From assembly GCF_057098645.1 (NCBI RefSeq), contig NZ_CM169472.1: a DNA stretch of 64,000 bases; one strand, written 5' to 3'. A program made the position numbers and the translations under genes. Shown piece by piece: positions 1,591-44,278 of the stretch (the stretch's first letter is position 1; each line of letters begins with the position of its first letter). The notes beneath the pieces are model-generated. The model was not told where the DNA came from and did not search any database. It worked only from the letters and a program-made list of their open reading frames with translations.

Positions 1591-3234
1591 ATGCGCCAGG
1601 TATTATCGTCTCTTTTGGTGATTGCTGGACTTGTGAATGGTCAGGCAATCGCCGCGCCTGAACCCACCCCGCATGCTGATATCCGCGACAGCGGTTTTGT
1701 CTATTGCGTCAGCGGGCAAGTCAACACCTTTAACCCATCCAAAGCGAGCAGTGGGTTAATTGTCGATACCCTTGCCGCCCAGTTTTATGATCGACTGCTG
1801 GATGTCGATCCGTATACCTATCGTCTGATGCCAGAACTTGCCGAAAGCTGGGAAGTGCTCGACAACGGCGCGACTTATCGCTTCCACCTGCGTCGCGATG
1901 TCCCGTTTCAAAAAACCGCCTGGTTTACTCCCACTCGCAAAATGAATGCCGATGATGTGGTGTTTACCTTCCAACGGATTTTTGACCGCAATAACCCGTG
2001 GCATAACGTCAACGGTAGTAACTTCCCCTATTTCGACAGTCTGCAATTTGCCGATAACGTTAAAAGCGTCCGCAAGCTGGATAATCATACCGTTGAGTTC
2101 CGTCTGGCTCAGCCGGATGCTTCTTTTTTGTGGCACCTCGCAACCCATTATGCTTCGGTCATGTCGGCAGAATATGCCCGGAAGTTAGAGAAAGAAGATC
2201 GCCAGGAGCAACTCGACCGTCAACCGGTCGGCACTGGACCGTATCAGTTGTCGGAATACCGCGCCGGGCAATTTATTCGCCTACAACGTCATGATGACTT
2301 CTGGCGCGGTAAACCGTTAATGCCGCAGGTGGTGGTGGATTTAGGCTCCGGCGGCACCGGACGTCTGTCGAAACTCCTGACCGGGGAATGCGACGTTCTG
2401 GCCTGGCCTGCTGCCAGCCAGCTATCCATTTTGCGTGACGACCCGCGCTTGCGTTTAACGCTGCGTCCTGGGATGAACGTCGCCTATCTGGCATTTAACA
2501 CCGCCAAACCGCCGCTAAATAATCCCGCTGTCCGCCATGCGCTGGCACTGGCGATTAATAACCAGCGCCTGATGCAATCCATCTATTATGGTACGGCTGA
2601 AACGGCGGCCTCTATTTTACCGCGCGCCTCGTGGGCCTATGACAACGAGGCTAAAATTACTGAATACAATCCGGCGAAATCGCGCGAACAGTTGAAGTCG
2701 TTGGGGCTGGAAAATTTAACGCTGAAACTGTGGGTGCCCACACGTTCGCAGGCGTGGAACCCCAGTCCACTGAAAACTGCCGAACTGATTCAGGCGGATA
2801 TGGCGCAGGTTGGCGTAAAAGTGGTGATTGTGCCGGTAGAAGGTCGCTTTCAGGAGGCGCGGTTGATGGATATGAGCCATGATCTGACGTTATCCGGTTG
2901 GGCGACGGACAGTAACGACCCGGACAGTTTCTTCCGTCCGTTACTGAGCTGCGCGGCAATTCATTCACAGACCAACCTCGCCCACTGGTGCGATCCGAAA
3001 TTCGACAGCGTGTTGCGTAAGGCGCTCTCCTCGCAGCAGCTGGCGGCGCGTATTGAAGCCTATGACGAAGCGCAGAGTATTCTGGCGCAGGAATTGCCCA
3101 TTTTGCCGCTGGCGTCGTCATTGCGTTTGCAGGCCTATCGGTACGATATCAAAGGTCTGGTGCTTAGCCCGTTTGGTAACGCCTCCTTTGCTGGGGTGTA
3201 TCGCGAGAAACAGGATGAGGTGAAAAAACCATGA
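1591..3234 (+). CDS. sapA: periplasmic substrate-binding protein of the Sap (peptide/putrescine) ABC transporter
   Basis: 547 aa with signal peptide; first gene of a five-gene ABC operon; recognised as SapA. Confidence 0.9.
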
Positions 3235-4196
3235 TTATCTTCACCTTACGCCGCATTTTGTTATTGATTGTCACCTTGTTCCTGCTGACCTTCGTTGGCT
3301 TCAGCTTGAGCTATTTCACTCCACACGCGCCGTTACAAGGCGCGTCACTGTGGAATGCCTGGGTGTTCTGGTTTAATGGCCTGATCCACTGGGATTTTGG
3401 TGTTTCCAGCATTAACGGTCAACCAATTGCCGAACAGTTAAAAGAGGTCTTCCCGGCGACGATGGAACTGTGCATCCTCGCCTTCGGTTTTGCGCTGATT
3501 GTTGGCATCCCCGTGGGGATGATTGCCGGGATTACGCGCCATAAGTGGCAGGATAACTTGATCAACGCCATCGCCTTACTGGGCTTTTCAATCCCGGTGT
3601 TCTGGCTGGCGCTTCTGTTGACACTGTTTTGTTCACTCACGCTAGGTTGGTTGCCCGTTTCAGGGCGTTTCGATCTGCTCTACGAAGTGAAACCGATTAC
3701 CGGTTTTGCGTTGATTGATGCCTGGCTTTCGGACTCACCATGGCGGGATGAAATGATCATGAGCGCAATCCGCCATATGATATTGCCCGTGATCACCCTG
3801 TCGGTTGCGCCAACAACTGAAGTGATCCGCCTGATGCGTATCAGCACTATCGAAGTGTATGACCAGAACTATGTAAAAGCGGCGGCGACCCGCGGTTTGT
3901 CGCGCTTTACTATTTTGCGTCGCCACGTTCTGCATAACGCGTTACCGCCGGTTATTCCTCGCCTGGGCTTACAGTTTTCCACCATGCTGACGCTGGCGAT
4001 GATCACCGAAATGGTTTTTAGCTGGCCGGGTTTAGGGCGCTGGTTAATTAACGCCATCCGCCAGCAGGATTACGCAGCCATTTCCGCCGGAGTGATGGTG
4101 TGTGGCTCACTGGTCATTATTGTTAACGTGATTTCTGATATTTTGGGTGCCATGGCTAACCCTCTGAAACATAAGGAATGGTATGCCTTACGATAG
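3231..4196 (+). CDS. sapB: Sap ABC transporter permease
   Basis: 321 aa membrane protein; start overlaps sapA stop by 4 nt. Confidence 0.9.
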
Positions 4197-6066: not shown

Positions 6067-6873
6067 ATGATCGAAACGCTGCTTGAAGTGCGTAATTTAA
6101 GTAAAACGTTCCGCTACCGGACCGGTTGGTTTCGTCGTCAGACCGTAGAAGCGGTAAAACCCTTGAGCTTTACGCTACGTGAAGGCCAGACACTGGCGAT
6201 TATTGGCGAGAATGGTTCGGGTAAATCCACGCTGGCAAAAATGCTGGCGGGAATGATAGAACCTACCAGCGGCGAGTTATTGATTGACGATCATCCACTG
6301 CATTTTGGCGATTATTCCTTCCGCAGTCAGCGTATTCGCATGATTTTTCAGGATCCTTCGACCTCGTTGAATCCCCGTCAACGTATCTCGCAAATCCTGG
6401 ATTTTCCACTGCGCCTGAACACCAACCTGGAACCGGAACAGCGTCGCAAACAGATTATTGAAACGATGCGTATGGTTGGGCTGCTACCGGATCACGTCAG
6501 TTACTATCCGCATATGTTGGCCCCCGGGCAAAAACAGCGTCTGGGTCTGGCGCGCGCGCTGATATTGCGCCCAAAAGTCATTATTGCCGATGAAGCCCTC
6601 GCTTCACTGGATATGTCGATGCGTTCGCAGTTGATTAATCTGATGCTGGAATTACAGGAAAAACAGGGCATTTCGTATATTTATGTTACTCAGCATATCG
6701 GAATGATGAAGCACATTAGCGACCTGGTGCTGGTGATGCATCAGGGCGAGGTTGTCGAGCGAGGCAGCACCGCGGATGTGCTGGCATCGCCGCTGCATGA
6801 ACTCACCAAACGGCTGATTGCCGGTCATTTTGGCGAGGCATTGACAGCGGATGCGTGGCGTAAGGACCGTTAG
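6067..6873 (+). CDS. sapF: Sap ABC transporter ATP-binding protein
   Basis: 268 aa; Walker A GENGSGKST; begins 2 nt after sapD stop. Confidence 0.9.
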   Translation: MIETLLEVRNLSKTFRYRTGWFRRQTVEAVKPLSFTLREGQTLAIIGENGSGKSTLAKMLAGMIEPTSGELLIDDHPLHFGDYSFRSQRIRMIFQDPSTSLNPRQRISQILDFPLRLNTNLEPEQRRKQIIETMRMVGLLPDHVSYYPHMLAPGQKQRLGLARALILRPKVIIADEALASLDMSMRSQLINLMLELQEKQGISYIYVTQHIGMMKHISDLVLVMHQGEVVERGSTADVLASPLHELTKRLIAGHFGEALTADAWRKDR

Positions 6874-6881
6874 TGTTCTGC

Positions 6882-6918
6882 ACCTCATCCTGACAGGGGC
6901 CCCCCCTCAGGATGAGGT
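6882..6918. terminator. hairpin between convergent sapF and MFS genes (probable bidirectional terminator)
   Basis: inverted repeat acctcatcctga ... tcaggatgaggt with GC-rich loop in the 50 bp gap between the two stop codons. Confidence 0.5.
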
Positions 6919-6923
6919 ATTCA

Positions 6924-8087
6924 TTACTTTTGATTGTCGATTCTGGTGAGAGCAACCAGGAATGCCAGTGTATAACACACCGTAATTGCCAGACTCATTT
7001 TTAACAGTGTTTCTCCGCCAAATCCCGACAATGGCGCGGCTATACCGCCGAAGACAAACATGCTCATCCCCATCAACGCAGACGCCGTTCCAGATTCCTG
7101 TGTCCCTACTGCACTCATAGCCTCTGCCCCGCCAACAGTGCCGATGCCGCTACAAAATGCAATAGTGAAAAATAATGCCACCAGTGCCGGAATGGGCAAT
7201 TGTGTCCATGCGCATAAGACCGTGAGCAATGCACACAAAATTGCCGCTATCAGGCCACCTCGCAACAATGTCATCGCATTAATCCGTCGCGCCAGACGCG
7301 AAAAGATCCATGAAGCAATGATAAGTCCGATGCCGTTAAGGCCAAACACCAGGCTAAATTGCATTGGACTAAAGCCAAATTCCTTCTGCAACACGAACGA
7401 CGAAGAGCCGATATACGCAAACAAGCCTGCCAGCATAAAACTTTGAATCAGGCAAAAGCGCATAAAACGGCGGTTCTGCACCACGCTTCGTCCGGTTAAT
7501 AGCAATGATGAGCCCCTTTTATTTTCTGGCAAGGTCTCATTAATAAATAACACGCAGCCCAGCAACAATACGGCGCTAATTTCAGCCATTACCCAGAATA
7601 AAGTGCGCCAGTCAAAAGTGCTAACAATGTACCCGCCCAGCACTGGCGACAACACCGGTGCCAGGCCATTCACCGTCATTAACAGCGCAAAAAACTGGGT
7701 CAACGTTACTCCCTGATATTTGTCACGAGCAATAGAACGAGAGAGCACCGAACCACCCGCCCCCGCGATCCCTTGAATAAAACGCCAGACCACCAGCCAG
7801 TAAATATTGTTCGTTGTCGCGCACAAAATGGAAGAAACAATAAACAATAGCAACGACAAGATTAACGGACGTTTACGCCCTATTTTGTCGCTCAGAGGGC
7901 CAAATAACAGTTGTCCGACGCCAAGACCGATCAGTGATGCAGTCAGCGTTAATTGCGTTATGGTCGTGGTTGCCGCCAGTTGCTCAGACATCTCCGGCAA
8001 AGCCGGCAAATAAAGATCGGTACACATCGGGCCGATACCGGCTAAAAGACCAAGAATCAATGCCCATGAAAGAGAGACTCTAGCCAT
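6924..8087 (-). CDS. MFS transporter, Bcr/CflA-like drug-efflux subfamily
   Basis: 387 aa, about 12 predicted TM helices; N-terminal DLYLPALP-type motif; 9 bp downstream of the OMF gene on the same strand. Confidence 0.75.
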   Translation of the reverse strand: MARVSLSWALILGLLAGIGPMCTDLYLPALPEMSEQLAATTTITQLTLTASLIGLGVGQLLFGPLSDKIGRKRPLILSLLLFIVSSILCATTNNIYWLVVWRFIQGIAGAGGSVLSRSIARDKYQGVTLTQFFALLMTVNGLAPVLSPVLGGYIVSTFDWRTLFWVMAEISAVLLLGCVLFINETLPENKRGSSLLLTGRSVVQNRRFMRFCLIQSFMLAGLFAYIGSSSFVLQKEFGFSPMQFSLVFGLNGIGLIIASWIFSRLARRINAMTLLRGGLIAAILCALLTVLCAWTQLPIPALVALFFTIAFCSGIGTVGGAEAMSAVGTQESGTASALMGMSMFVFGGIAAPLSGFGGETLLKMSLAITVCYTLAFLVALTRIDNQK

Positions 8088-8095
8088 ATTATTCC

Positions 8096-9469
8096 TTACT
8101 TGAGTGATGACATGCCGCCGCCCAGCGACTGCCAGAGCGTGATTCGGTTTGTAAAATCAGTCAGTTGCAGTGCCAGTAGCTCCTGCTGTGCGCTCCACAA
8201 GCTGCGCTGCGCCGTCAACACGGTCAGGTAATCACCAACACCCGTCTGATAGCGACGCAAGCCAACATCGACCGTTTGTTGCTCAGCTTTAACATACTGG
8301 CGCTGTGCATCCAGTTGCTCTTCAAGCGTGGTCCGCCGCGCCAGTGCGTTAGCGACATCTTTAAATGCGCTCTGAACGGTTTTTTCATAGGTGGCAATGA
8401 GTCCACGCTTTTGTGCTTCTGCGTAACGAAGCTGCGCCAGATTACTTCCGCCAGTGAACAGCGGTAATGTGACCGATGGCGTAAATGACCAGATCTGCAT
8501 TCCGTGGCTGAACAACGACGACAATGCGTCACTGCCAACACCAGCGCTGGCAGTCAGCGAAATCGTCGGGAAAAAGTTAGCCCGCGCCGCGCCAATATCG
8601 GCATTGGCGCTCTTCAAATTATGTTCCGCTTCCTGGATATCCGGGCGACGCAGCAGAACGTCAGATGACACTCCCGCAGGAACCAGACTTATCATCTGTT
8701 CCGGCAGGCTTTCCAGTGTTCCCGGTAGCAAATTTTCCTCAAGCGTTGTACCTGCCAGTAAGTTCAGCGCATTTTTATCCTGCATCACTTGTGTCTGATA
8801 GCTGGCAACGCTGGCGCGCGCTTGCTGATAAACACTCATCGCCTCACTGACATCTGTCGCTGCCGCCGTGCCAACCTGTTGCTGGCGCTGGATAATTTTC
8901 AATGAGTTTTCTGCACTGGTCATCGTTTCTTTTGCCAGGGCCAGGTTGCTGTTATCGGCCGCCAGTGTCAGCCAGGCGGTGCTGATTTCAGCAATCAGCG
9001 TTAAACGGGTGTTCTGGGCTGTAAATTCACTGGCAAGCCAGGTTTCTCGCGCCGCCCGAGATAAACTCTGATTACGACCAAACAGATCTAACGTAAAACT
9101 GGACACCGTGCCGTCAGCCTCGGCAGTGGTTTCCGTACCATTCGCCAGCGAACGACTGCGGGTTGAACTTAAGGCCGCATTCACCGTCGGGAATAACGAC
9201 GCATTAGTTTGCCCATAGAGCGCCCGTGCTGAGTCAATATCAGCAATCGCTTTTTGCACATCGCGGTTACTGTTCAGTGCAATAGTCACCACCTGCTGCA
9301 ATCGGGGATCGTGGATCACCTGCTGCCAGTCATGGCTGATTGCCTTTCCCTGGCCCTGTGCTCCCGGCAAGGTCGCCGGGATTGGGGATTCAGGCGTGCT
9401 GTAGTGGGGATCGAGCGAGACACATCCCGCACTCAACAGCACCAGAAAAATAAGAGAACGACGCAACAT
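8096..9469 (-). CDS. outer-membrane efflux lipoprotein (NodT/OprM-type OMF)
   Basis: 457 aa; lipobox LSAGC near N-terminus; coiled-coil rich; follows the RND gene with a 4 bp gap. Confidence 0.8.
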   Translation of the reverse strand: MLRRSLIFLVLLSAGCVSLDPHYSTPESPIPATLPGAQGQGKAISHDWQQVIHDPRLQQVVTIALNSNRDVQKAIADIDSARALYGQTNASLFPTVNAALSSTRSRSLANGTETTAEADGTVSSFTLDLFGRNQSLSRAARETWLASEFTAQNTRLTLIAEISTAWLTLAADNSNLALAKETMTSAENSLKIIQRQQQVGTAAATDVSEAMSVYQQARASVASYQTQVMQDKNALNLLAGTTLEENLLPGTLESLPEQMISLVPAGVSSDVLLRRPDIQEAEHNLKSANADIGAARANFFPTISLTASAGVGSDALSSLFSHGMQIWSFTPSVTLPLFTGGSNLAQLRYAEAQKRGLIATYEKTVQSAFKDVANALARRTTLEEQLDAQRQYVKAEQQTVDVGLRRYQTGVGDYLTVLTAQRSLWSAQQELLALQLTDFTNRITLWQSLGGGMSSLK

Positions 9470-9472
9470 AAC

Positions 9473-12400
9473 TTACTCCTGACGGCGCGGTTTACCGGCA
9501 AACAAACGTTTCACCAGTACAAAAAACAGAGGAACAAAGAAAATAGCCAGCAACGTAGCGGTCAGCGTACCGCCAATAATGCCCGTACCAATGGCGATGC
9601 GGCTGTTCGCCCCTGCGCCGGTTGCTATCGCCAGCGGCATTACCCCCGCAATAAACGCCAGCGAGGTCAAGATGATTGGGCGTAAACGAGTCTGCGCCGC
9701 GCGTAATGCCGCACGACTCAAGGAATAACCCTCTGCAACCGCCGCTTCAGCAAATTCCACAATCAGAATGGCGTTTTTCGACGACAAGCCGATAGTGGTT
9801 AATAGCGCCACCTGGAAGTAAACATCGTTGTTTAAATCACGCATCCAGGCCGCCAGCGCCGCGCCAAGAAGCCCCAGAGGGATCACCAGAATGACCGAGA
9901 ACGGGACTGACCAGCTTTCGTACAGTGCTGCAAGGCAGAGGAAAACCACCAGAATAGAAACTGCATACAGACTCAATGCCTGACCGCTGGCCAGTTTCTC
10001 CTGCAATGACAAACCACTCCAGGCCCAGGTTGTTCCCGCAGGAAGACTGTTTGCCAGTTCCTCCATTTTTGTCATTGCATCGCCGGAACTAAAGCCAGTC
10101 GCATTTTCCCCCTGAATTTCATAGGCTGCAGAACCGTTGTAGCGCACCAGTCTTTCCGGTCCATACAGCCAGCGGGTGGTCGCAAAAGCAGAGAATGGTG
10201 TCATGGCGTTATCGCTACCGCGCACACACCATTTACCTAAGTCTGACGGCGCGGAACGAAATTCACTGTCGCCCTGAATGTAGACTTTTTTCACACGACC
10301 ACGGTCAATAAAGTCATTCACATAAGTACCGCCCCACGCACTGGACAGGGTGTCGGTGACATCATTCAAACTCAACCCTAATGACACCGCTTTATTACTA
10401 TCAATATCTACCTGCAATTGCGGCATTTGTGGCAAATCATTGGCACGAACAGAATGTAACTCCGGACTTTGATTCGCTTTTTCTATCAACTGATTACGCA
10501 TTTGCAGTAGTGTTTCGCGATCGGTTCCACCGTTAGCTAACAATTCAAACGTAAAACCATTGCTTTGCCCCAGCCCATCAACGGCTGGCGGCGTCATCGC
10601 AAATACCGTGGCATCACGAATTGTGCCCAGCTCTTTGGTTGCCCGTAGGGCGATAGCCTGGGCGGTGTTTTCTGCCCCTTTACGTTGAGACCAGTTTTTC
10701 AACGAAACAAACGCCATCCCGGTGTTCTGTCCGCTGCCGCTAAAACTGAAACCATCAACGGTAAAAATGACATCGGTATTTGCTTTCTCGTTAATCAGGA
10801 ACCAGTCAACAATCTGGCGATTCACTTCTGCTGTACGGGCAGCGGTCGCCCCGGCCGGCAGCGTGTACTGCACCATGATTTCGCCCTGGTCTTCAGTGGG
10901 TAAGAAACTGCCCGGCAGTTTCCACATCATCAGGGCCATTCCACCACCCAGTACGAGATAAAGCCCCATCGTTCGAGCAGCACGGCGCAGGACATAAATT
11001 ACGCCTCGCTGATATTTATCTTCAGTACGGCGGTAAAAGCGGTTAAATGCGCCGAAAAAGCCTTTTTTATGTGGCGGAACATGCTGGAGGACGGAACCGC
11101 ACAGGGCGGGAGTCAAGGTCAATGCCACCACCACGGAAAGCAGCATTGCGGAGATAATGGTTATCGAAAACTGACGATAAATTACCCCCGTAGATCCCCC
11201 AAAGAAGGCCATAGGCAGGAATACGGCTGACAACACCAGCGCAATGGCAACCAGTGCGCCAGAAATCTCGCCCATTGATTTTTCCGTGGCTTCACGCGCG
11301 GGCAACCCTTCGTCACGCATAATGCGTTCGACGTTCTCCACTACCACAATGGCATCGTCCACCAGCAAGCCGATCGCCAGCACCATTGCAAACAACGTCA
11401 GGGTATTAATCGAATAGCCAAACAACGCAAGAACGCCGAATGTGCCCAGCAAAACGACGGGGACAGCTAACCCCGGAATCAGTGTGGCACGCAGGTTTTG
11501 CAGGAATAAATACATCACGCAAACCACCAATACGATGGCTTCAAACAGCGTCTGAATTACGTCCTCTACAGAGATTTTAATAAATTCAGTGCTGTCTTTC
11601 GGGTAAGCGATGTCGTATCCCTGCGGCATGTTCCGCTGGAATTCGGCAATCTTATCCTTGACCAGCGTCGCCGTATTCAGCGCATTCGCACCGGGCGAAA
11701 GCATTACAGCAACCCCGGCAGACGGGTGACCGTTAAGTTTGCCGATAGCGGTATAATCTTCACTGCCCATCTCAACGCGAGCCACATCTTTTATACGAAC
11801 AACTGCGCCGTCTGACTGGCTTTTCACGATAATATTTTTGAACTGATCCACCGTCTGCAAGCGAGACTGCGCACGTACCGTTGCGGTCAGTTGCTGAGTA
11901 TTCGGTGAAGGCAATGCCCCTATTTTCCCGGCAGTAACCTGCACGTTTTGCGCTTCAATAGCACTTTGCACGTCTGAAGGCATTAGCGAGTAAGACGCCA
12001 GTTTGGCCGGGTCAAGCCAGATGCGCATAGCGTATTCCGCGCCAAAGACTTGCAGACTCCCCACACCTTCAACACGCGCCAGCGGGTCCTGAACGTTACT
12101 AACCAACCAGTCGGCGATATCCGAACTAGAGGCTTTGTCAGTGGTGTCATACACGGCAGCAATCAGCAAAAAGTTGCTTTGTGATTTCTCCACCGTAACA
12201 CCCGTTTGCTGCACTTCGCTAGGTAGGCGCGACTCCGCCTGCTGAATTTTATTCTGCACCTGAACCTGTGCAGTATCTGGATCGGTACCTTGTTCAAAGG
12301 TCACATTAATACTGACCGAACCATCAGAGCTGCTGGTTGAGCTGAAATAGAGTAAATTATCAAGCCCAGTGAGTTGTTGCTCGATAACCTGAGTCACGCT

Positions 12401-12580
12401 GTTCTCCAGCGTTTCGGCAGAAGCACCAGTATAAGTGGCTGAAATTTTAATGGTCGGTGGCGCAACGTCAGGATATTGCGCGACGGGCAATGTGCGAATA
12501 GCCAGAATCCCCGCCAACATAATCAAAATGGCGATAACCCAGGCAAAGACCGGGCGGCGAACAAAAAAGCGCGAAAACAT
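9473..12580 (-). CDS. RND (HAE1-type) inner-membrane efflux pump
   Basis: 1035 aa; AcrB-like N-terminus MFSRFFVRRPVFAWVIAILIML; two large periplasmic loops and 12 TM pattern. Confidence 0.9.
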   Translation of the reverse strand: MFSRFFVRRPVFAWVIAILIMLAGILAIRTLPVAQYPDVAPPTIKISATYTGASAETLENSVTQVIEQQLTGLDNLLYFSSTSSSDGSVSINVTFEQGTDPDTAQVQVQNKIQQAESRLPSEVQQTGVTVEKSQSNFLLIAAVYDTTDKASSSDIADWLVSNVQDPLARVEGVGSLQVFGAEYAMRIWLDPAKLASYSLMPSDVQSAIEAQNVQVTAGKIGALPSPNTQQLTATVRAQSRLQTVDQFKNIIVKSQSDGAVVRIKDVARVEMGSEDYTAIGKLNGHPSAGVAVMLSPGANALNTATLVKDKIAEFQRNMPQGYDIAYPKDSTEFIKISVEDVIQTLFEAIVLVVCVMYLFLQNLRATLIPGLAVPVVLLGTFGVLALFGYSINTLTLFAMVLAIGLLVDDAIVVVENVERIMRDEGLPAREATEKSMGEISGALVAIALVLSAVFLPMAFFGGSTGVIYRQFSITIISAMLLSVVVALTLTPALCGSVLQHVPPHKKGFFGAFNRFYRRTEDKYQRGVIYVLRRAARTMGLYLVLGGGMALMMWKLPGSFLPTEDQGEIMVQYTLPAGATAARTAEVNRQIVDWFLINEKANTDVIFTVDGFSFSGSGQNTGMAFVSLKNWSQRKGAENTAQAIALRATKELGTIRDATVFAMTPPAVDGLGQSNGFTFELLANGGTDRETLLQMRNQLIEKANQSPELHSVRANDLPQMPQLQVDIDSNKAVSLGLSLNDVTDTLSSAWGGTYVNDFIDRGRVKKVYIQGDSEFRSAPSDLGKWCVRGSDNAMTPFSAFATTRWLYGPERLVRYNGSAAYEIQGENATGFSSGDAMTKMEELANSLPAGTTWAWSGLSLQEKLASGQALSLYAVSILVVFLCLAALYESWSVPFSVILVIPLGLLGAALAAWMRDLNNDVYFQVALLTTIGLSSKNAILIVEFAEAAVAEGYSLSRAALRAAQTRLRPIILTSLAFIAGVMPLAIATGAGANSRIAIGTGIIGGTLTATLLAIFFVPLFFVLVKRLFAGKPRRQE

Positions 12581-13701
12581 CAGGCGTTGCCTCCATTAGC
12601 CTGAACTTCAACAGCCTTGACCGTCTGCCCTGAAGTGACTTTGGCAGAACCTTCAACAATCAGTCGGTCGCCGTTGTGCAGGCCGTTTAGCACCAGCCAT
12701 TTATCACCATATGTTTCTCCCGTTTCGAGCGTTCGCTGCTCTACTTTATTGTCTTTATTCACCACCAGCGCAGTTGCATTGCCTTTAGCATCGCGCGTGA
12801 CGCCCTGTTGCGGCGCGAGAATAGCGTCTTCCATCACGCCTTCATCGACACGAGCGCCAACAAACATTCCCGGTAATAACTGCTGTTGTGGATTGGGGAA
12901 AATCGCCCGTAATGTCACCGAACCGGTAGACTCATCTACAGCGACTTCGGTGAGTTCCAGACGCCCTTTTTCGCTGTAGGTTGTGCCATCTTCCAGAATA
13001 AGTGAGACGCTCATGGTGTCACTGTTGGTCGCCAGTGACTGTTTACGCAGACGTAATAAATCGACACTGGAGCGAGTGAGGTCGACATACATTGTATCCA
13101 GACCACGAATAGTCGTTAACGCTGTATCTTGCGACGCGGTCACCAGTGCGCCAGGGGTTACCGACGAAATGCCAATGCGCCCTGAAATCGGTGCGGTTAC
13201 CGTGGTCCAGTCAAGATTAATGCGCGCAGTTTCCAGTGCGGCTTTTTTCGCCTCTACACTGGCTTTATCTTGTGCACAGGTAGACTGAGCATCATCAGCA
13301 TCCTGTTGTGAAACACCGTTCTCTTTCACCAGTCGGGCATAACGCTGCGCTTTCTGGCAATCGGCTTTTACCAGTGCCTGTGCTTGTTGTAATGCAGCCC
13401 GAGCTTCATTCCATGCAGCCTGATAACTGGCCGCATCAATCTGGTAGAGCGGCTGTCCAGCCTTGACCAGATCACCTTCCTTAAATAAGCGTTTCTGGAT
13501 AATTCCCCCAACCTGCGGACGTACTTCGGCACTGAGCGCAGCACTGGTGCGTCCGGTTAATTCACTGACTACCGAGACCGGTTGAGATTTGACTGTAACA
13601 ACGCCGACTTCTGTTTCTGACGGGGATGAATTGTCACTTTGCGTATTATCACAACCAGATAAGAGCAGCATTGCCACTACAGATGTTGCTATATACTTCA
13701 T
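12580..13701 (-). CDS. RND periplasmic adaptor (membrane fusion protein), lipoprotein
   Basis: start chosen at MKYIATS (lipobox LLSGC) preceded by GGAG; biotinyl-lipoyl/beta-barrel MFP-like translation; stop overlaps RND start. Confidence 0.8.
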   Translation of the reverse strand: MKYIATSVVAMLLLSGCDNTQSDNSSPSETEVGVVTVKSQPVSVVSELTGRTSAALSAEVRPQVGGIIQKRLFKEGDLVKAGQPLYQIDAASYQAAWNEARAALQQAQALVKADCQKAQRYARLVKENGVSQQDADDAQSTCAQDKASVEAKKAALETARINLDWTTVTAPISGRIGISSVTPGALVTASQDTALTTIRGLDTMYVDLTRSSVDLLRLRKQSLATNSDTMSVSLILEDGTTYSEKGRLELTEVAVDESTGSVTLRAIFPNPQQQLLPGMFVGARVDEGVMEDAILAPQQGVTRDAKGNATALVVNKDNKVEQRTLETGETYGDKWLVLNGLHNGDRLIVEGSAKVTSGQTVKAVEVQANGGNA

Positions 13702-13849
13702 TATTTTCTCCAGGGTGAGAAATACCCTCCTCATTAAAATCAATGAGGATATATCAGGGATATTCAGTTATAACGAACCCGCATCGCGAAATGAATTTCG
13801 CAATGAAATAAGGGGGATTAATATCCCCCGCTATTGGTTAATTCTGTTC

Positions 13850-14416
13850 TTATTTATTTATCAACATACTAACAATATCCTGATATATTTCCTGCAGATG
13901 TTGTGGATCGCTTTTTTGCGGTGTTAAACGACGATAAACCGTACCTTCCATCATGGTAGCAAACACTTCAACGCAGCAACGAATGTGCTCGTCGCTAAGA
14001 TGGGGATGCATTCTTTTCATATGTGCACAACCGTTAGCGAACATTCTGGCGTCAGCTTCTTCAAGCATTGCCATAACCCGCGGGTTGCGTGTGGCTTCTG
14101 CAGCCACTTCCAGCATCAGCGCGTCGTCGTCCTCATTTAAGGATTTACGCAAGGCAAGGACTTCCGGGAAGTGATCGGTACGCGCGTCAATGTCCATTTG
14201 GGCAATACGAAAGTCGATGATACGGCGAACCATCTCTTCAATAATGGCGTCTTTGTTGGCGAAGTAACGATATATCTGACCCACGCTAAGCTGAGCTTCG
14301 CTGGCAATTTGCGACATACTGGCGGCATGAAACCCGCAGCGACGAAAACACCGACGGGCGGCGTTAATGATTTCATCCTGACGCTGTTTGTGGCGTATCT
14401 CCAGCTTGCTGGTCAT
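13850..14416 (-). CDS. TetR-family transcriptional regulator
   Basis: N-terminal HTH (AARRCFRRCGFHAASMSQIASEAQLSVGQIYRYF); start chosen at MTSKLE preceded by AGGAGA; a longer ORF to 14515 is possible. Confidence 0.75.
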   Translation of the reverse strand: MTSKLEIRHKQRQDEIINAARRCFRRCGFHAASMSQIASEAQLSVGQIYRYFANKDAIIEEMVRRIIDFRIAQMDIDARTDHFPEVLALRKSLNEDDDALMLEVAAEATRNPRVMAMLEEADARMFANGCAHMKRMHPHLSDEHIRCCVEVFATMMEGTVYRRLTPQKSDPQHLQEIYQDIVSMLINK

Positions 14417-14893
14417 TTCTGTCTCCTGGCCTATCACTTGGTGAGAATGATCGTTCTCATTTTTGCTGATTATACGTTTCTCCAAAGTAATGGAAAGTAT
14501 TTTTATCTTATTCATGGTGCATATTCTGATAATGAAGAGATTGTGGAGATTCTGTGAAGATAGTTGACAATATTAAGTTGGGGTCAATTCATCAGAAAGG
14601 CTGCTACTTGTTGTCGCCAGTTCTGTTTTCATCATCAAACTTATCGGAGCTAATACGAATAGTTTCATAGTCAGATTCTATAAGATATTTCCCCAACCTA
14701 CCCCTTGCAGGCGTCAAGAGTAGATAACGCAAAATGCTCTGTACCGCAGCTTCTCTCCGGTACAGAAAGCGCAACTATAGCCACCCACAGCCAGGTTGAT
14801 TATAATAACCGTTTATCTGTTCGTACTGTTTACTAAAACGACGAATCGCCTGATTTTCAGGCACAACAAGCATCAACAATAAGGATTAAAGCT

Positions 14894-15682
14894 ATGGGTT
14901 TTCTTTCCGGTAAGCGCATTCTGGTAACCGGTGTTGCCAGCAAACTGTCCATCGCCTACGGTATCGCTCAGGCGATGCACCGCGAAGGAGCTGAACTGGC
15001 ATTCACCTACCAGAACGACAAACTGAAAGGCCGCGTAGAAGAATTTGCCGCTCAATTGGGTTCTGACATCGTTCTGCAGTGCGATGTTGCCGAAGATGCC
15101 AGCATCGACACCATGTTCGCTGAACTGGGGAAAGTTTGGCCGAAATTTGACGGTTTCGTACACTCTATTGGTTTTGCACCTGGCGATCAGCTGGATGGTG
15201 ACTATGTTAACGCCGTTACTCGTGAAGGCTTCAAAATTGCCCACGACATCAGCTCCTACAGCTTCGTTGCAATGGCAAAAGCTTGCCGCTCCATGCTGAA
15301 TCCGGGTTCTGCCCTGCTGACCCTTTCCTACCTTGGCGCTGAGCGCGCTATCCCGAACTACAACGTTATGGGTCTGGCAAAAGCGTCTCTGGAAGCGAAC
15401 GTGCGCTATATGGCGAACGCGATGGGTCCGGAAGGTGTGCGTGTTAACGCCATCTCTGCTGGTCCGATCCGTACTCTGGCGGCCTCCGGTATCAAAGACT
15501 TCCGCAAAATGCTGGCTCATTGCGAAGCCGTTACCCCGATTCGCCGTACCGTTACTATTGAAGATGTGGGTAACTCTGCGGCATTCCTGTGCTCCGATCT
15601 CTCTGCCGGTATCTCGGGTGAAGTGGTCCACGTTGACGGCGGTTTCAGCATTGCTGCAATGAACGAACTCGAACTGAAATAA
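14894..15682 (+). CDS. fabI: enoyl-ACP reductase (NADH)
   Basis: 262 aa; Rossmann motif [13 protein letters not shown]; recognised as FabI. Confidence 0.95.
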
Positions 15683-39080: not shown

Positions 39081-40011
39081 AGAGCTTCCTTTTGGTGTCG
39101 CCTTCCCAGGCGTCTGATATGCTTTTGTGCAACAGTGAGTCAGAACTTACATCTGACTCACTGATAGTAAAGTCTGTTTGAACTCTTCAGGCCTTAAGTA
39201 AACGACTCGACGTTTTAACTGGCCTGGCTTTGAGGCGCAACATACTACACTATCTTTATGGTTAAAGCTTGTTTCGATTAACATCAGCTTAATTACCAGC
39301 CACCACCGCCTCCGCCACCCGCGCCGCCAGCACCACCACCGGAATAACTTCGCCCCAACAAACTGGTATTGGCCCCCAGACTCAGGTGCATCTGTAATGA
39401 GAACAAAACGCCACTACGGGCAATTTCCGGGGCACTAACAGCCGCTGTGAGTGATGGGGTGATACGTGCGACCCATTCTCTTCCAAGGTTTGCTGAGACT
39501 GCCCAACCTAGCAACGCGTAATCCAGTTTCCGTGTTTCCCCTTTCCGCCGCCGCCCACTGTGTGTTGCTGCCTCTTTACGCGCAAGATAGTTAACGATAG
39601 CTTCACCGTGGGCATAACGTTGCTGCCCAGTTTGGGTAAACTTTGGCAGAAAAATATACCCCATACCAGTGAGATAACCGGTCAGGAAAACAGCGCTAAA
39701 ATAACCCGCTGGCATATACCAGTAAAAGAATACATCTCCGACATTGATATAGAGAGAATAAAAGGCCACGCCTGAACAAATCAGCGGTAAAAACAAAGTG
39801 ATGATGGCACGATTAACGCAAGGCTTGTCATCATCGCGGGCAAACAAAAGCTCAAGGGAACAAAATAAAAAAGGAAGAAGCCAGCAGATCATAATAAACA
39901 TATCGCCCACCAGACTCATTCCTGCCCAGCCTACAGGACTCAGGTTACCGTAAAGAATGAACCGCCCCGGGAATCCTGGAGACTAAACTCCCTGAGAAAG
40001 AGGTAAACAGG

Positions 40012-40338
40012 ATGACTAAAAATACACGTTTTTCCCCCGAGGTCCGTCAACGGGCAGTTCGTATGGTTCTGGAAAGTCAGGGCGAATATGACTCACAATG
40101 GGCGGCAATTTGTTCCATTGCCCCAAAGATTGGCTGTACACCAGAGACTCTGCGTGTGTGGGTTCGTCAGCATGAGCGGGATACCGGGAGTGGTGATGGT
40201 GGACTCACCACCGCTGAACGTCAGCGTCTGAAAGAGCTGGAACGTGAAAATCGTGAACTGCGCCGCAGTAACGATATCCTTCGCCAGGCTTCCGCTTATT
40301 TTGCGAAGGCGGAGTTCGACCGCCTCTGGAAAAAATAA
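40012..40338 (+). CDS. IS629 OrfA (HTH transposase subunit)
   Basis: 108 aa [19 protein letters not shown]..., leucine zipper C-terminus. Confidence 0.9.
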
Positions 40339-41225
40339 TGCCGCTGCTGGATAAGCTGCGTGAGCAGTACGGGGTCGGACCGGTATGCAGTGAACTGCAT
40401 ATTGCCCCGTCAACGTATTACCACTGTCAGCAACAGCGACATCATCCTGATAAACGCAGTGCCCGTGCTCAGCGCGATGACTGGCTGAAGAGAGAGATAC
40501 AGCGCGTATACGATGAAAATCACAAGGTATACGGTGTGCGTAAAGTCTGGCGTCAGTTGTTACGGGAAGGTATCAGAGTGGCCAGATGCACTGTGGCACG
40601 TCTCATGGCGGTTATGGGACTTGCCGGTGTTCTCCGGGGTAAAAAGGTCCGTACTACCGTCAGCCGGAAAGCCGTTTCCGCAGGCGACCGCGTAAACCGT
40701 CAGTTCGTGGCAGAACGTCCTGACCAGCTGTGGGTGGCTGATTTTACTTACGTCAGCACATGGCAGGGCTTCGTCTATGTGGCGTTCATCATTGATGTGT
40801 TTGCCGGATGTATCGTGGGGTGGCGAGTCTCATCGTCTATGGAAACGACATTCGTGCTGGATGCACTGGAGCAGGCGTTGTGGGCCCGTCGGCCGTCCGG
40901 CACAGTCCATCACAGTGATAAAGGTTCTCAGTATGTATCACTGGCCTATACGGAGCGACTAAAAGAAGCAAAACTGCTGGCATCAACAGGGAGTACAGGT
41001 GACTCGTATGACAACGCGATGGCGGAGAGCATCAATGGTCTTTACAAAGCGGAGGTAATACACCGTAAGAGCTGGAAAAACCGTGCAGAAGTGGAACTGG
41101 CCACACTCACGTGGGTGGACTGGTATAACAATCGACGATTGCTGGGAAGGCTGGGTCATATCCCTCCGGCAGAAGCAGAAAAAGCTTATTATGCTTCCAT
41201 CAGAAACGATGATCTGGCAGCCTGA
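40338..41225 (+). CDS. IS629 OrfB (DDE integrase-like catalytic subunit)
   Basis: 295 aa in the overlapping frame; rve/DDE domain. Confidence 0.9.
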   Translation: MPLLDKLREQYGVGPVCSELHIAPSTYYHCQQQRHHPDKRSARAQRDDWLKREIQRVYDENHKVYGVRKVWRQLLREGIRVARCTVARLMAVMGLAGVLRGKKVRTTVSRKAVSAGDRVNRQFVAERPDQLWVADFTYVSTWQGFVYVAFIIDVFAGCIVGWRVSSSMETTFVLDALEQALWARRPSGTVHHSDKGSQYVSLAYTERLKEAKLLASTGSTGDSYDNAMAESINGLYKAEVIHRKSWKNRAEVELATLTWVDWYNNRRLLGRLGHIPPAEAEKAYYASIRNDDLAA

Positions 41226-42525
41226 GTTCACAGATAAAACACTCTCCAGGAAAACCGGGGCGGTTCAGAATGACCGCCAATATTGCCAGTCCACCCCATT
41301 GCAAAAACGTATCAGGCCGGTAAAACGAAGACTGTTTACGCGGCAGATAAAATTTCTGCATCCGTAAAAATGCCCTGCGTAAGACTCTGTTGCGTCTCCC
41401 CGTAAGAACGACCTTATCGCCTTTACGAAATAACGCTTCCAGTAATAACTGTTCTGCGGGCAGTAATACCGCATTATTTCTGGTCACGCCTTCATTAACA
41501 CGAATCAGGATTTGCTGGTTCTTGTCAGACTGATCTTCCAGATGAATTTTTCCTTTCACAATCAGATTTACGATATCGGCACAAAAACCTTTATCGTCGT
41601 AAACCAGCTTCGCATCGAGACGTAACATGCCGGGCGTGTAATCTGGCGGAATGACATCGGTTTCAATCACATCTACCGGCGTAAATTGCGGCCTGCGCTT
41701 CCAGAGATATAACCATCCACAAACCAGGAATAGACACGGAAACCAAATTAACAACGATGACGTGGAGGGTAAAAGAAGATGGCTGAAAATATTCGTCGTT
41801 TGTGGAGTCGGGGCATTGCTAAGTAACGAGTGAGGCCAACGGTAGAGTACCGTAAAATCTTCACGATAAAACGGATCGCTGGATTCAATTCTTCCGTCCT
41901 CAAGGATGCGGCCATTTCGATATGTGTCGCCCTCTTCTCCAGTAAAGAGATCGATTTCGCTAAATGGATTACCCGCGATATCAGGGAACTTGAGTGAAAA
42001 TCGGGTCTTATAGATTTCAAACGGCCAGTGGTTACCAGTCACGTTCCAGATTAACAGATCTGAATCTCCCTCACGCAGGAAAGCATTTTTAACCTGATAA
42101 TGAATTTGATAATGATAGTCGCCTTGAGGCAAGAAACGTTGTTTATCGCCCACGACAATACTCATTAACCCGATATGCCAGTCATGATGCCAGGGTTCAG
42201 GAATACCATCACGGGTGACGCCAACAATATGATAGTTCAGCAGTGTAGCGTCCCCATCAGGCTGCATCCAGAGTCGTGGTAAATCACGATAAAAGCCGTG
42301 CTTAATCTGCTGATTTCGCGCCTGAAAATGAATATTTTCTTTGATGTCGAACACCCCATCCGGTTGCAGAGTGGCTTCAACATCAAAGAGCGAGATCCCT
42401 TCTTCATAAGAAGGGATCTCCGTGTTTTCTGCATAACTTAGAGATGATACAAACAGCCCTGCTATCAACAGCAAAATGCAGCGAAACTTCCCTGCCATAG
42501 TCTTCCATCCGTGGAACGCAATTTA

Positions 42526-44162: not shown

Positions 44163-44207
44163 ATGAAAGCAATTTTCGTACTGAAAGCTTGGTGGCGCAC
44201 TTCCTGA
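44163..44207 (+). CDS. trpL: trp operon leader peptide
   Basis: 14-codon ORF [14 protein letters not shown] with tandem Trp codons. Confidence 0.9.
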   Translation: [14 protein letters not shown]

Positions 44208-44249
44208 AACGGGCAGTGTATTCACCATGCGTAAAGCAATCAGATACCC

Positions 44250-44278
44250 AGCCCGCCTAATGAGCGGGCTTTTTTTTG
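44250..44278 (+). terminator. trp attenuator (3:4 terminator hairpin)
   Basis: agcccgcctaatgagcgggct followed by tttttttt, about 20 nt before trpE. Confidence 0.9.

Follow-up and report, generated by a model that had tools for sequence, protein, structure and literature searches.

Gene content of the sapF–fabI interval

The sequence analyzed here, called the window, is a 64,000-nt stretch of contig NZ_CM169472.1 (NCBI RefSeq assembly GCF_057098645.1). Five intact genes were found on the minus strand between sapF and fabI from the list of open reading frames (ORFs) and their translations, and this block is, with very little room for doubt, the chromosomal eefRABCD operon of phylogroup-E Escherichia coli (O145:H28), which has already been named and studied. 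The operon encodes an efflux system of the resistance-nodulation-division (RND) type together with a transporter of the major facilitator superfamily (MFS). The genes, their neighbors and the hairpin at the sapF end are as follows (coordinates of the window).

6067–6873, plus strand: sapF, flanking gene, converges on eefD
6882–6918, unstranded: hairpin in the convergent sapF/eefD gap, an inverted repeat with 18-nt arms, 89% complementary
6924–8087, minus strand: eefD, ORF of 387 aa, Bcr/CflA-type (DHA1) MFS exporter
8096–9469, minus strand: eefC, ORF of 457 aa, OprM/NodT-type outer-membrane factor lipoprotein, lipobox LSAGC at residues 12–16
9473–12580, minus strand: eefB, ORF of 1035 aa, HAE-1 RND transporter
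12580–13701, minus strand: eefA, ORF of 373 aa, periplasmic adaptor lipoprotein, lipobox LLSGC
13850–14416, minus strand: eefR, ORF of 188 aa, TetR-family autorepressor of the operon
14894–15682, plus strand: fabI, flanking gene, divergent from eefR with 477 bp between them

A first reading of the letters, made without database searches (the sequence-only reading), had placed five same-strand genes at these positions, and this was borne out by the ORFs and translations. It had also described the spacing as tight. The stop/start overlap of eefA and eefB was confirmed (1 nt, TGATG); the gaps, however, measure 3 bp (eefB–eefC) and 8 bp (eefC–eefD) rather than 4 and 9 bp, and eefR is separated from eefA by 148 bp with a terminator-like hairpin. 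The RefSeq annotation of the E. coli O145:H28 RM12761 record, to which a 9.7-kb region is 100% identical, agrees with the five gene calls. The hairpin at 6882–6918 is probably a bidirectional terminator for sapF and eefD, judging from its repeat structure, and a related stem was also found 3' of sapF in the alternative allele of this interval, which carries ycjD.

Family assignment and diagnostic residues of the Eef proteins

The curated cut-offs of NCBIfam were used for subfamily and equivalog calls. EefB scored 1549 bits for TIGR00915 (HAE-1 RND, cut-off 940), EefC 371 bits for TIGR01845 (NodT outer-membrane factor, cut-off 210), EefA 274 bits for TIGR01730 (RND_mfp, cut-off 95) and EefD 277.6 bits for TIGR00710 (Bcr/CflA, cut-off 200.9). 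EefR matched PF00440 (TetR HTH), as precomputed for a 99%-identical cluster (P0001). The equivalog models gave scores of 1375 vs 2150 bits (AcrB) and 1405 vs 1854 bits (AcrD) for EefB, 57.7 vs 495 bits (TolC) for EefC, 314 vs 475 bits (TcaB) and 228 vs 303 bits (Bcr) for EefD, and 54 vs 201 bits (BetI) for EefR, none of which reaches its cut-off. The best models for EefA were MexA (401 vs 750 bits) and AcrA, both again under the equivalog cut-offs. Exact equivalog identity with AcrB, AcrD, MexA, the OprM-like AdeK, TcaB or BetI was therefore rejected, and by these scores EefB is a paralog distinct from AcrB and AcrD.

The closest solved structures were AcrB and MexB for EefB, OprM for EefC (343 bits), UidR for EefR, and EmrD and MdfA for EefD, in agreement with the published relatives. 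Families, lipoboxes and solved relatives together confirmed the proposed set of a TetR regulator, a lipoprotein adaptor, an RND pump, a dedicated OprM/NodT-type outer-membrane factor and a co-linear Bcr/CflA-like MFS protein; in the profile comparison with characterized efflux systems, which had been suggested as a check, each protein fell in the expected subfamily and none was an exact known equivalog.

Diagnostic residues have been listed for each Eef protein (PMC12817139), and V45 and R50 of EefR are sites of resistance mutations (PMC12482432). All of them were found at the published positions: V45 and R50 in EefR; the proton-relay residues D408, D409, K935 and T972 in EefB; D206, G412, L415, T416, L418 and T419 in EefC; and R120/L124/S131/D136 (the RLS motif), together with R123/V125/D134, in EefA.

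Operator, promoter and identity with the published operon

EefR has been reported to repress its own operon through the palindrome TGAGAACGATCATTCTCA, which was validated by electrophoretic mobility shift assay (EMSA) and in which single substitutions abolish binding (PMC12482432). The corresponding features upstream of eefR in the window are the following.

14442–14459, minus strand: EefR operator, 18-bp palindrome TGAGAACGATCATTCTCA, identical to the site validated by EMSA in PMC12482432
14469–14496, minus strand: predicted sigma-70 promoter PeefR, TTTCCA-16 nt-TATAAT, a consensus match only (10/12)

The exact operator occurs once in the 64 kb (0 expected by chance), with the TATAAT 9 nt before it and the eefR ATG 25 nt after it, and the PeefR site was the best promoter-like site of the minus strand in the region according to a promoter scan. 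With 0–1 mismatch, the operator is kept at −38 to −43 of the eefR ATG in all 10 of the loci that have eefA downstream of eefR; a motif with two mismatches was found in Erwinia toletana. Neither PMC12817139 nor PMC12482432 seems to describe this conservation.

Since the site, the gene order and lengths, the exact operator and all published diagnostic residues coincide, the block was identified as canonical eefRABCD. A 9.7-kb query (with short flanks) was compared with complete E. coli genomes and showed 98.2–100% identity to the eef copies of 2037 of them, including ST131 and O157:H7, above the ∼97% taken as the minimum for a reference copy. The operon had been noted in 2008 in E. coli SMS-3-5, as cited by Shen et al. 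(PMC12482432). Pugh et al. (bioRxiv 2024; Microb Genom 2026, PMC12817139) described eefRABCD as the seventh RND system of E. coli from >19,000 assemblies, always between sapF and fabI, in phylogroups B2, D, E, F and G, with ycjD in its place in A, B1 and C. A functional study in ATCC 35218 and ATCC 25922 was performed by Shen et al. (Virulence 2025, PMC12482432). The novelty implied by the sequence-only reading, that of an unusual architecture, was thus lost: the operon is already described (PMC12817139) and functionally characterized (PMC12482432), and this in reference strains (ATCC 35218 and ATCC 25922), which that reading had itself named as the finding that would speak against it.

The experiments that had been suggested as checks, reverse-transcription PCR (RT-PCR) across the gene junctions and panels of minimum inhibitory concentrations (MICs), are likewise in print. 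RT-PCR on cDNA amplified all junctions, including eefR–eefA, in support of co-transcription (PMC12482432). The deletion of eefR raised eefA to eefD 27- to 83-fold (eefA ∼83-fold), GFP reporters were also used, and eefR point mutants likewise raised eefA; promoter activity was located in ∼316 bp upstream of eefR, and the operon was silent under laboratory conditions (PMC12482432). When eefABC and eefD were supplied on plasmids, the MICs of sanguinarine, erythromycin, chloramphenicol, tetracycline, clindamycin and fusidic acid rose in acrB-null hosts, and an eefAB construct was also active without eefC (PMC12482432). Ethidium efflux assays were also run by Pugh et al., who found efflux of both ethidium and rhodamine 6G (PMC12817139). 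The substrates, regarded in the sequence-only reading as not inferable from the letters, are partly known from these published experiments.

Structure of the eefR–eefA spacer

The 148 nt between eefR and eefA are strongly structured, with the features listed below.

13702–13849, minus strand: structured eefR–eefA spacer, 148 nt, three hairpins, fold z-score −3.6
13812–13829, minus strand: hairpin 1 (H1), a terminator-like match followed by UUAUUU, directly 3' of the eefR stop codon
∼13779–13802, minus strand: hairpin 2 (H2), from the spacer fold
13728–13749, minus strand: hairpin 3 (H3), from the spacer fold, ∼30 nt before the eefA ATG

The same three-hairpin layout, with differing stem sequences, was found in E. 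albertii, Kluyvera, Dryocola, Enterobacter, Cronobacter and Klebsiella. A plain MAFFT alignment left hairpin 3 out of register and was replaced by an alignment to a covariance model. With the model, which was built from four Escherichia sequences, the spacers of Cronobacter, Kluyvera, Dryocola, Klebsiella and Enterobacter were detected at E-values of 3.5e-7 to 5e-4. In the resulting alignment, which holds ten sequences only (5 of them Escherichia) and, being fitted to the model, leans towards the modeled structure, 91.8% of the cells pair and double changes occur in 14 of the 26 pairs. None of 500 shuffles reached these values, and slid controls gave 47–58% pairing and 1–6 double-change pairs. 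At gathering thresholds, Rfam returned no known RNA family in the eef locus, spacer included. These hairpins and their covariation seem to go beyond PMC12817139 and PMC12482432. In Escherichia sp. MOD1-EC7003 (a cryptic clade; locus L003, ∼8620–8745), an insertion of ∼124 bp, perhaps of REP or MITE type, was observed directly after the eefR stop, upstream of hairpin 1.

A one-mismatch copy of the operator half-sites, TGAGGAGGGTATTTCTCA on the minus strand, was also noted at 13716–13733, inside hairpin 3 just upstream of eefA. As a second functional EefR operator it was rejected, given that other Escherichia do not conserve its TTCTCA half, that single substitutions abolish binding and that no competition for EefR was seen in EMSA with the 148-bp fragment that lies downstream of eefR (PMC12482432). 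The copy is probably due to chance.

Proposed mechanism and alternative transcription schemes

The explanation that we favor, at a probability of about 0.93, is that the published eefRABCD mechanism operates in this block. Repression, operator binding, co-transcription and efflux phenotypes have been demonstrated for loci ∼98% identical to it; the present analysis establishes locus identity, operator, diagnostic residues, intactness and genomic setting, and on that basis the same EefR regulation and efflux activity would be expected in this strain. A dimer of the TetR-family EefR would bind the palindrome just downstream of its own −10 element, overlapping the start region of PeefR, and would thereby keep the five-gene transcript almost silent. 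Inactivation of EefR, by mutation as demonstrated in the literature or by a presumed natural ligand, would let transcription from PeefR run through the leaky, hairpin-rich 148-nt spacer into eefABCD, and the spacer hairpins would modulate this read-through. EefA, EefB (as a proton-driven RND trimer resembling AcrB/MexB) and EefC (as an OprM-like channel) would then assemble into a tripartite pump, and EefD would export across the inner membrane. The expected outcome would be that published for cells without AcrB, namely lower susceptibility to sanguinarine, macrolides, chloramphenicol, tetracycline, clindamycin, fusidic acid, ethidium and rhodamine 6G.

Several points weigh against this explanation. 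Pugh et al. found antibiotic MICs unchanged on eef deletion or heterologous expression (PMC12817139), and the conserved terminator-like hairpin right after eefR argues against simple uninterrupted co-transcription. H1 must, for its part, be leaky, since there is a single operator and point mutations in eefR nevertheless derepress eefA. MG1655 is not known to carry T7 RNA polymerase. The eefABC constructs of Pugh et al. were made in pET21a/24a and placed in MG1655 without IPTG (PMC12817139), so that expression was probably very low; their negative drug-transport result may reflect this, a point that seems to be in neither of the two papers.

The same hairpin is also the starting point of a different scheme, in which the locus comprises two transcription units: eefR would end at its own terminator H1, and eefABCD would be transcribed mainly from a promoter inside the 148-nt spacer, the hairpins serving as a 5' leader or stabilizer. 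The hairpin with its T-rich tail directly after the eefR stop, in a structure kept in six genera, would suit this scheme, as would the report that the sequence upstream of eefA was essential for the phenotype of multi-gene constructs and may contain native promoter elements (PMC12482432). However, the eefR–eefA junction was amplified by RT-PCR (PMC12482432), eefR mutation or deletion raises eefA ∼83-fold though just one operator exists, the operator-like copy at 13716–13733 is neither conserved nor backed by competition of the 148-bp fragment (PMC12482432), and no minus-strand site in the spacer reached the threshold of the promoter scan. An internal promoter is thus the weaker alternative to a leaky H1, and we consider the two-unit scheme unlikely. 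Within the single-transcript mechanism, a more tentative proposal, to which we give a low probability, is that the spacer forms a conserved cis-regulatory RNA leader, consisting of a leaky intrinsic terminator and two covarying hairpins, which sets the flow from PeefR to the pump genes, and that the five-gene operon arose by insertion of an eefABC cassette into an older, overlapping eefR–eefD (TetR–MFS) unit like those that Erwinia and Pantoea still have. The published need for the eefA upstream sequence would fit a functional leader. If true, such a leader would explain why Shen et al. needed the native sequence upstream of eefA, and it would account for part of the disagreement between Pugh et al. 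and Shen et al.

Distribution and origin of the block

With at least 80% coverage, the eef block was detected in 2037 of the 5426 complete E. coli genomes; the remaining ones, K-12 derivatives included, have the arrangement sapF–ycjD–fabI. The comparison of this interval upheld the sequence-only reading in its description of an accessory block within conserved core and in its statement that K-12 carries ycjD alone between sapF and fabI. The extent of the variable part in the window is as follows.

6881–14743, unstranded: variable segment, 7863 bp vs 633 bp (ycjD and repeat-like DNA) in K-12-type strains, from blastn of the empty-site locus L002

Homology to the K-12-type allele stops at 6880 (6895 when the sapF terminator stem is counted) and restarts at 14744 in blastn; the ycjD segment of L002 is 2882–3514, and the flanks of both alleles are identical. 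Apart from the sapF terminator stem common to both, blastn of the eef segment (7863 bp) against its ycjD counterpart (633 bp) gave no match with E below 0.07. Because the two segments are unrelated, strains without eef carry a replacement and not a simple deletion, an observation that seems to go beyond PMC12817139 and PMC12482432. The K-12-type allele was also searched for the eef remnants that Fig. 3 of PMC12817139 implies, and their presence was rejected: blastn at word size 7 returned nothing colinear past the sapF terminator stem. In E. coli O157:H7 strain 1130 (L055, 7083–9518), IS1203 interrupts eefA and eefB is annotated as frameshifted, so the operon is not universally intact in phylogroup E.

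The same five genes occupy the same slot in E. albertii, E. whittamii and cryptic-clade Escherichia at 94–97% amino-acid identity. All five lie elsewhere in the chromosome in Kluyvera, Klebsiella, Kosakonia and one record labeled Salmonella, and eefRABC only was found in Dryocola, Cronobacter and an Enterobacter IncFIB plasmid. Across the non-Escherichia loci, EefA, EefB and EefC show 74–89% amino-acid identity, and EefR orthologs across Enterobacterales 59–72%. A remark by Pugh et al. denies homology between the operons of Enterobacter and E. coli (PMC12817139); contrary to this remark, the 74–89% identity of EefABC makes the systems clearly homologous. In Erwinia toletana (L051, 9001–10772) and Pantoea sp. 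(L053, 9001–10772), an eefR ortholog overlaps an MFS gene by 4 nt, and no RND genes were found at the locus. This two-gene form, which seems to be new with respect to PMC12817139 and PMC12482432, suggests that the TetR–MFS pair is the older module and that eefABC was inserted between its genes; the Erwiniaceae may alternatively have lost eefABC.

A recently acquired mobile island, or a resistance module that came on a plasmid and entered the sapF–fabI interval, could in principle explain the patchy presence within E. coli, and lateral transfer has been suggested from the likeness to Pseudomonas Mex systems (PMC12817139), as have five plasmid-borne copies been reported (PMC12482432). Against such an origin, the composition check that had been suggested revealed no difference from the flanks: the eef genes have GC of 0.48–0.54 and GC at third codon positions (GC3) of 0.46–0.57, and sapD, sapF, fabI and rnb have GC of 0.51–0.53 and GC3 of 0.54–0.56. 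In addition, annotation and a repeat search disclosed no flanking repeat, integrase, transposase or mobility gene at the block, and the site and gene order are shared with E. albertii, E. whittamii and cryptic-clade Escherichia. Three E. coli "plasmid" records with eefRABCD in PLSDB, of 4.9 Mb (NZ_CP134663.1, H31), 386 kb and 253 kb (the latter two being NZ_CP141085.1 and CP054253.1, in an order not implied here), have sapABCDF, the essential fabI, yciW, rnb and also pdeR around the operon, and were typed as non-mobilizable, without replicon typing. They are thus chromosome fragments, given these flanks, the missing replicon and mobility typing and the 4.9-Mb size of one of them, and the inference of plasmid transmission in PMC12482432 is doubtful for these three records; their mislabeling, too, seems to go beyond PMC12817139 and PMC12482432. 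Recent horizontal acquisition was rejected on these grounds and is very improbable.

Natural role and significance

What the operon is selected for may differ from drug efflux. Drug efflux could be incidental, and the operon could be selected for exporting a compound that stems from host, diet or plants, or an endogenous metabolite, which would be sensed by EefR and matter for gut or extra-intestinal life. Such a natural role would not conflict with the mechanism favored above. The conservation of the operon is as high as that of acrAB–tolC, it is confined to B2/D/E/F/G, its deletion leaves antibiotic MICs unchanged (PMC12817139) and it is silent in the laboratory (PMC12482432). The nearest characterized regulator is the glucuronide sensor UidR, and EefR is kept with an EefD-like MFS protein even in plant-associated Erwinia and Pantoea, together with the operator in Erwinia toletana. 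No such substrate or inducer has been found, however, metals and many drugs having been tested without result (PMC12817139), and overexpression clearly gives multidrug resistance in acrB-null hosts (PMC12482432). A host- or plant-derived EefR ligand may be regarded as a reasonable idea, and for incidental drug efflux as a whole the odds are, in our judgment, slightly short of even.

The eef observation is real, correctly annotated and already known, and the additions made here are modest. In those E. coli lineages to which most disease is due, the operon forms a seventh RND system that is silent. With AcrB lost or inhibited, it can confer multidrug resistance in one step, which bears on efflux-inhibitor strategies, a case already made in print. 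An intact canonical copy is carried in a Shiga-toxigenic O145:H28 background, and the claimed risk of plasmid spread is lowered by the finding that the inspected plasmid copies are mislabeled chromosome pieces. The conserved structure of the regulator–pump spacer is worth testing; the spacer and the TetR–MFS ancestry are minor leads.

Other features of the window

Outside the eef locus, yciQ (DUF2207) is split into 39293–39919 and 41200–42498 by an IS3-family insertion sequence (IS) element of the IS629/IS1203 type at ∼39950–41270, which has plus-strand ORFs at 40012–40338 and 40338–41225 and an ALIL pseudoknot at 40293–40409. The gene is intact in RM12761 and the other listed complete O145 genomes, and the yciQ–IS junction of the window was covered by 0 of the 5426 complete genomes; the window therefore stems from a close relative of RM12761 and not from that strain. 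The part from ∼50500 to 64000, read from the RM12761 annotation with a shift of ∼1.3 kb caused by the IS insertion, contains a truncated ompW beyond trpA–yciGFE. Behind ompW come IS remnants, two genes for type III secretion effectors (espM1 and nleG) and tail genes of a lambdoid prophage (gpJ, tail assembly, Ant), so that this part resembles a prophage, or an exchangeable effector locus, with ompW as its integration site. The remaining Rfam matches in the window, the small RNA STnc180 (30231–30433, minus strand) and the trp operon leader (44184–44277, plus strand), are ordinary core-genome features.

Comparison with known efflux systems

AcrAB–TolC and the other K-12 RND systems share with the present system the HAE-1 family, the trimeric proton-relay architecture and a TetR-type local repressor, and EefB is 57% identical to AcrB (PMC12817139). 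In contrast to AcrAB–TolC, EefABC has its own channel instead of TolC, and the eef repressor is co-transcribed rather than divergent.

MexAB–OprM of P. aeruginosa likewise combines an RND pump with its own OprM-family lipoprotein channel; OprM is the nearest solved relative of EefC, MexA is the best NCBIfam model for EefA, and MexB is nearly as near to EefB as AcrB is. The regulator of MexAB–OprM is the divergent MarR-type MexR. The eef operon differs in its in-operon TetR gene, its extra MFS gene, the unusual gate residues of EefC and the score of EefA, which stays well under the MexA cut-off (401 vs 750 bits).

The eefR–MFS units of Erwinia and Pantoea resemble the ends of the operon, with 63–64% identity for EefR and 48–49% identity of the MFS protein to EefD, and in Erwinia toletana the two-mismatch operator follows a TATAAT upstream of the unit. 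These units differ from eef in that they are without RND genes, have the 4-nt overlap of regulator and MFS gene and lie in a syntenic bamE...nadE–cho context.

EefABC of Klebsiella (Enterobacter) aerogenes and K. pneumoniae is orthologous in adaptor and RND pump: the K. aerogenes contig L052 gave 75 and 84% amino-acid identity, and 78, 87 and 75% have been published for EefA, EefB and EefC (PMC12482432). Klebsiella EefABC is cryptic in the laboratory and confers multidrug resistance when overproduced (PMC12817139). It differs in its chromosomal site and in the H-NS silencing reported for it, and neither eefR nor eefD figures in the description of the prototype (PMC12482432); upstream of eefA, contig L052 nonetheless carries a gene resembling eefR (59% identity) and an operator with one mismatch.

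The closest match is E. coli eefRABCD itself (SMS-3-5, ATCC 25922 and ATCC 35218), in which the site, the five genes, their order and lengths, the operator and the residues are those found here. Relative to the B2 copies, the nucleotide identity is ∼98%, and the difference is just the allelic divergence of the phylogroup-E (O145:H28) copy.

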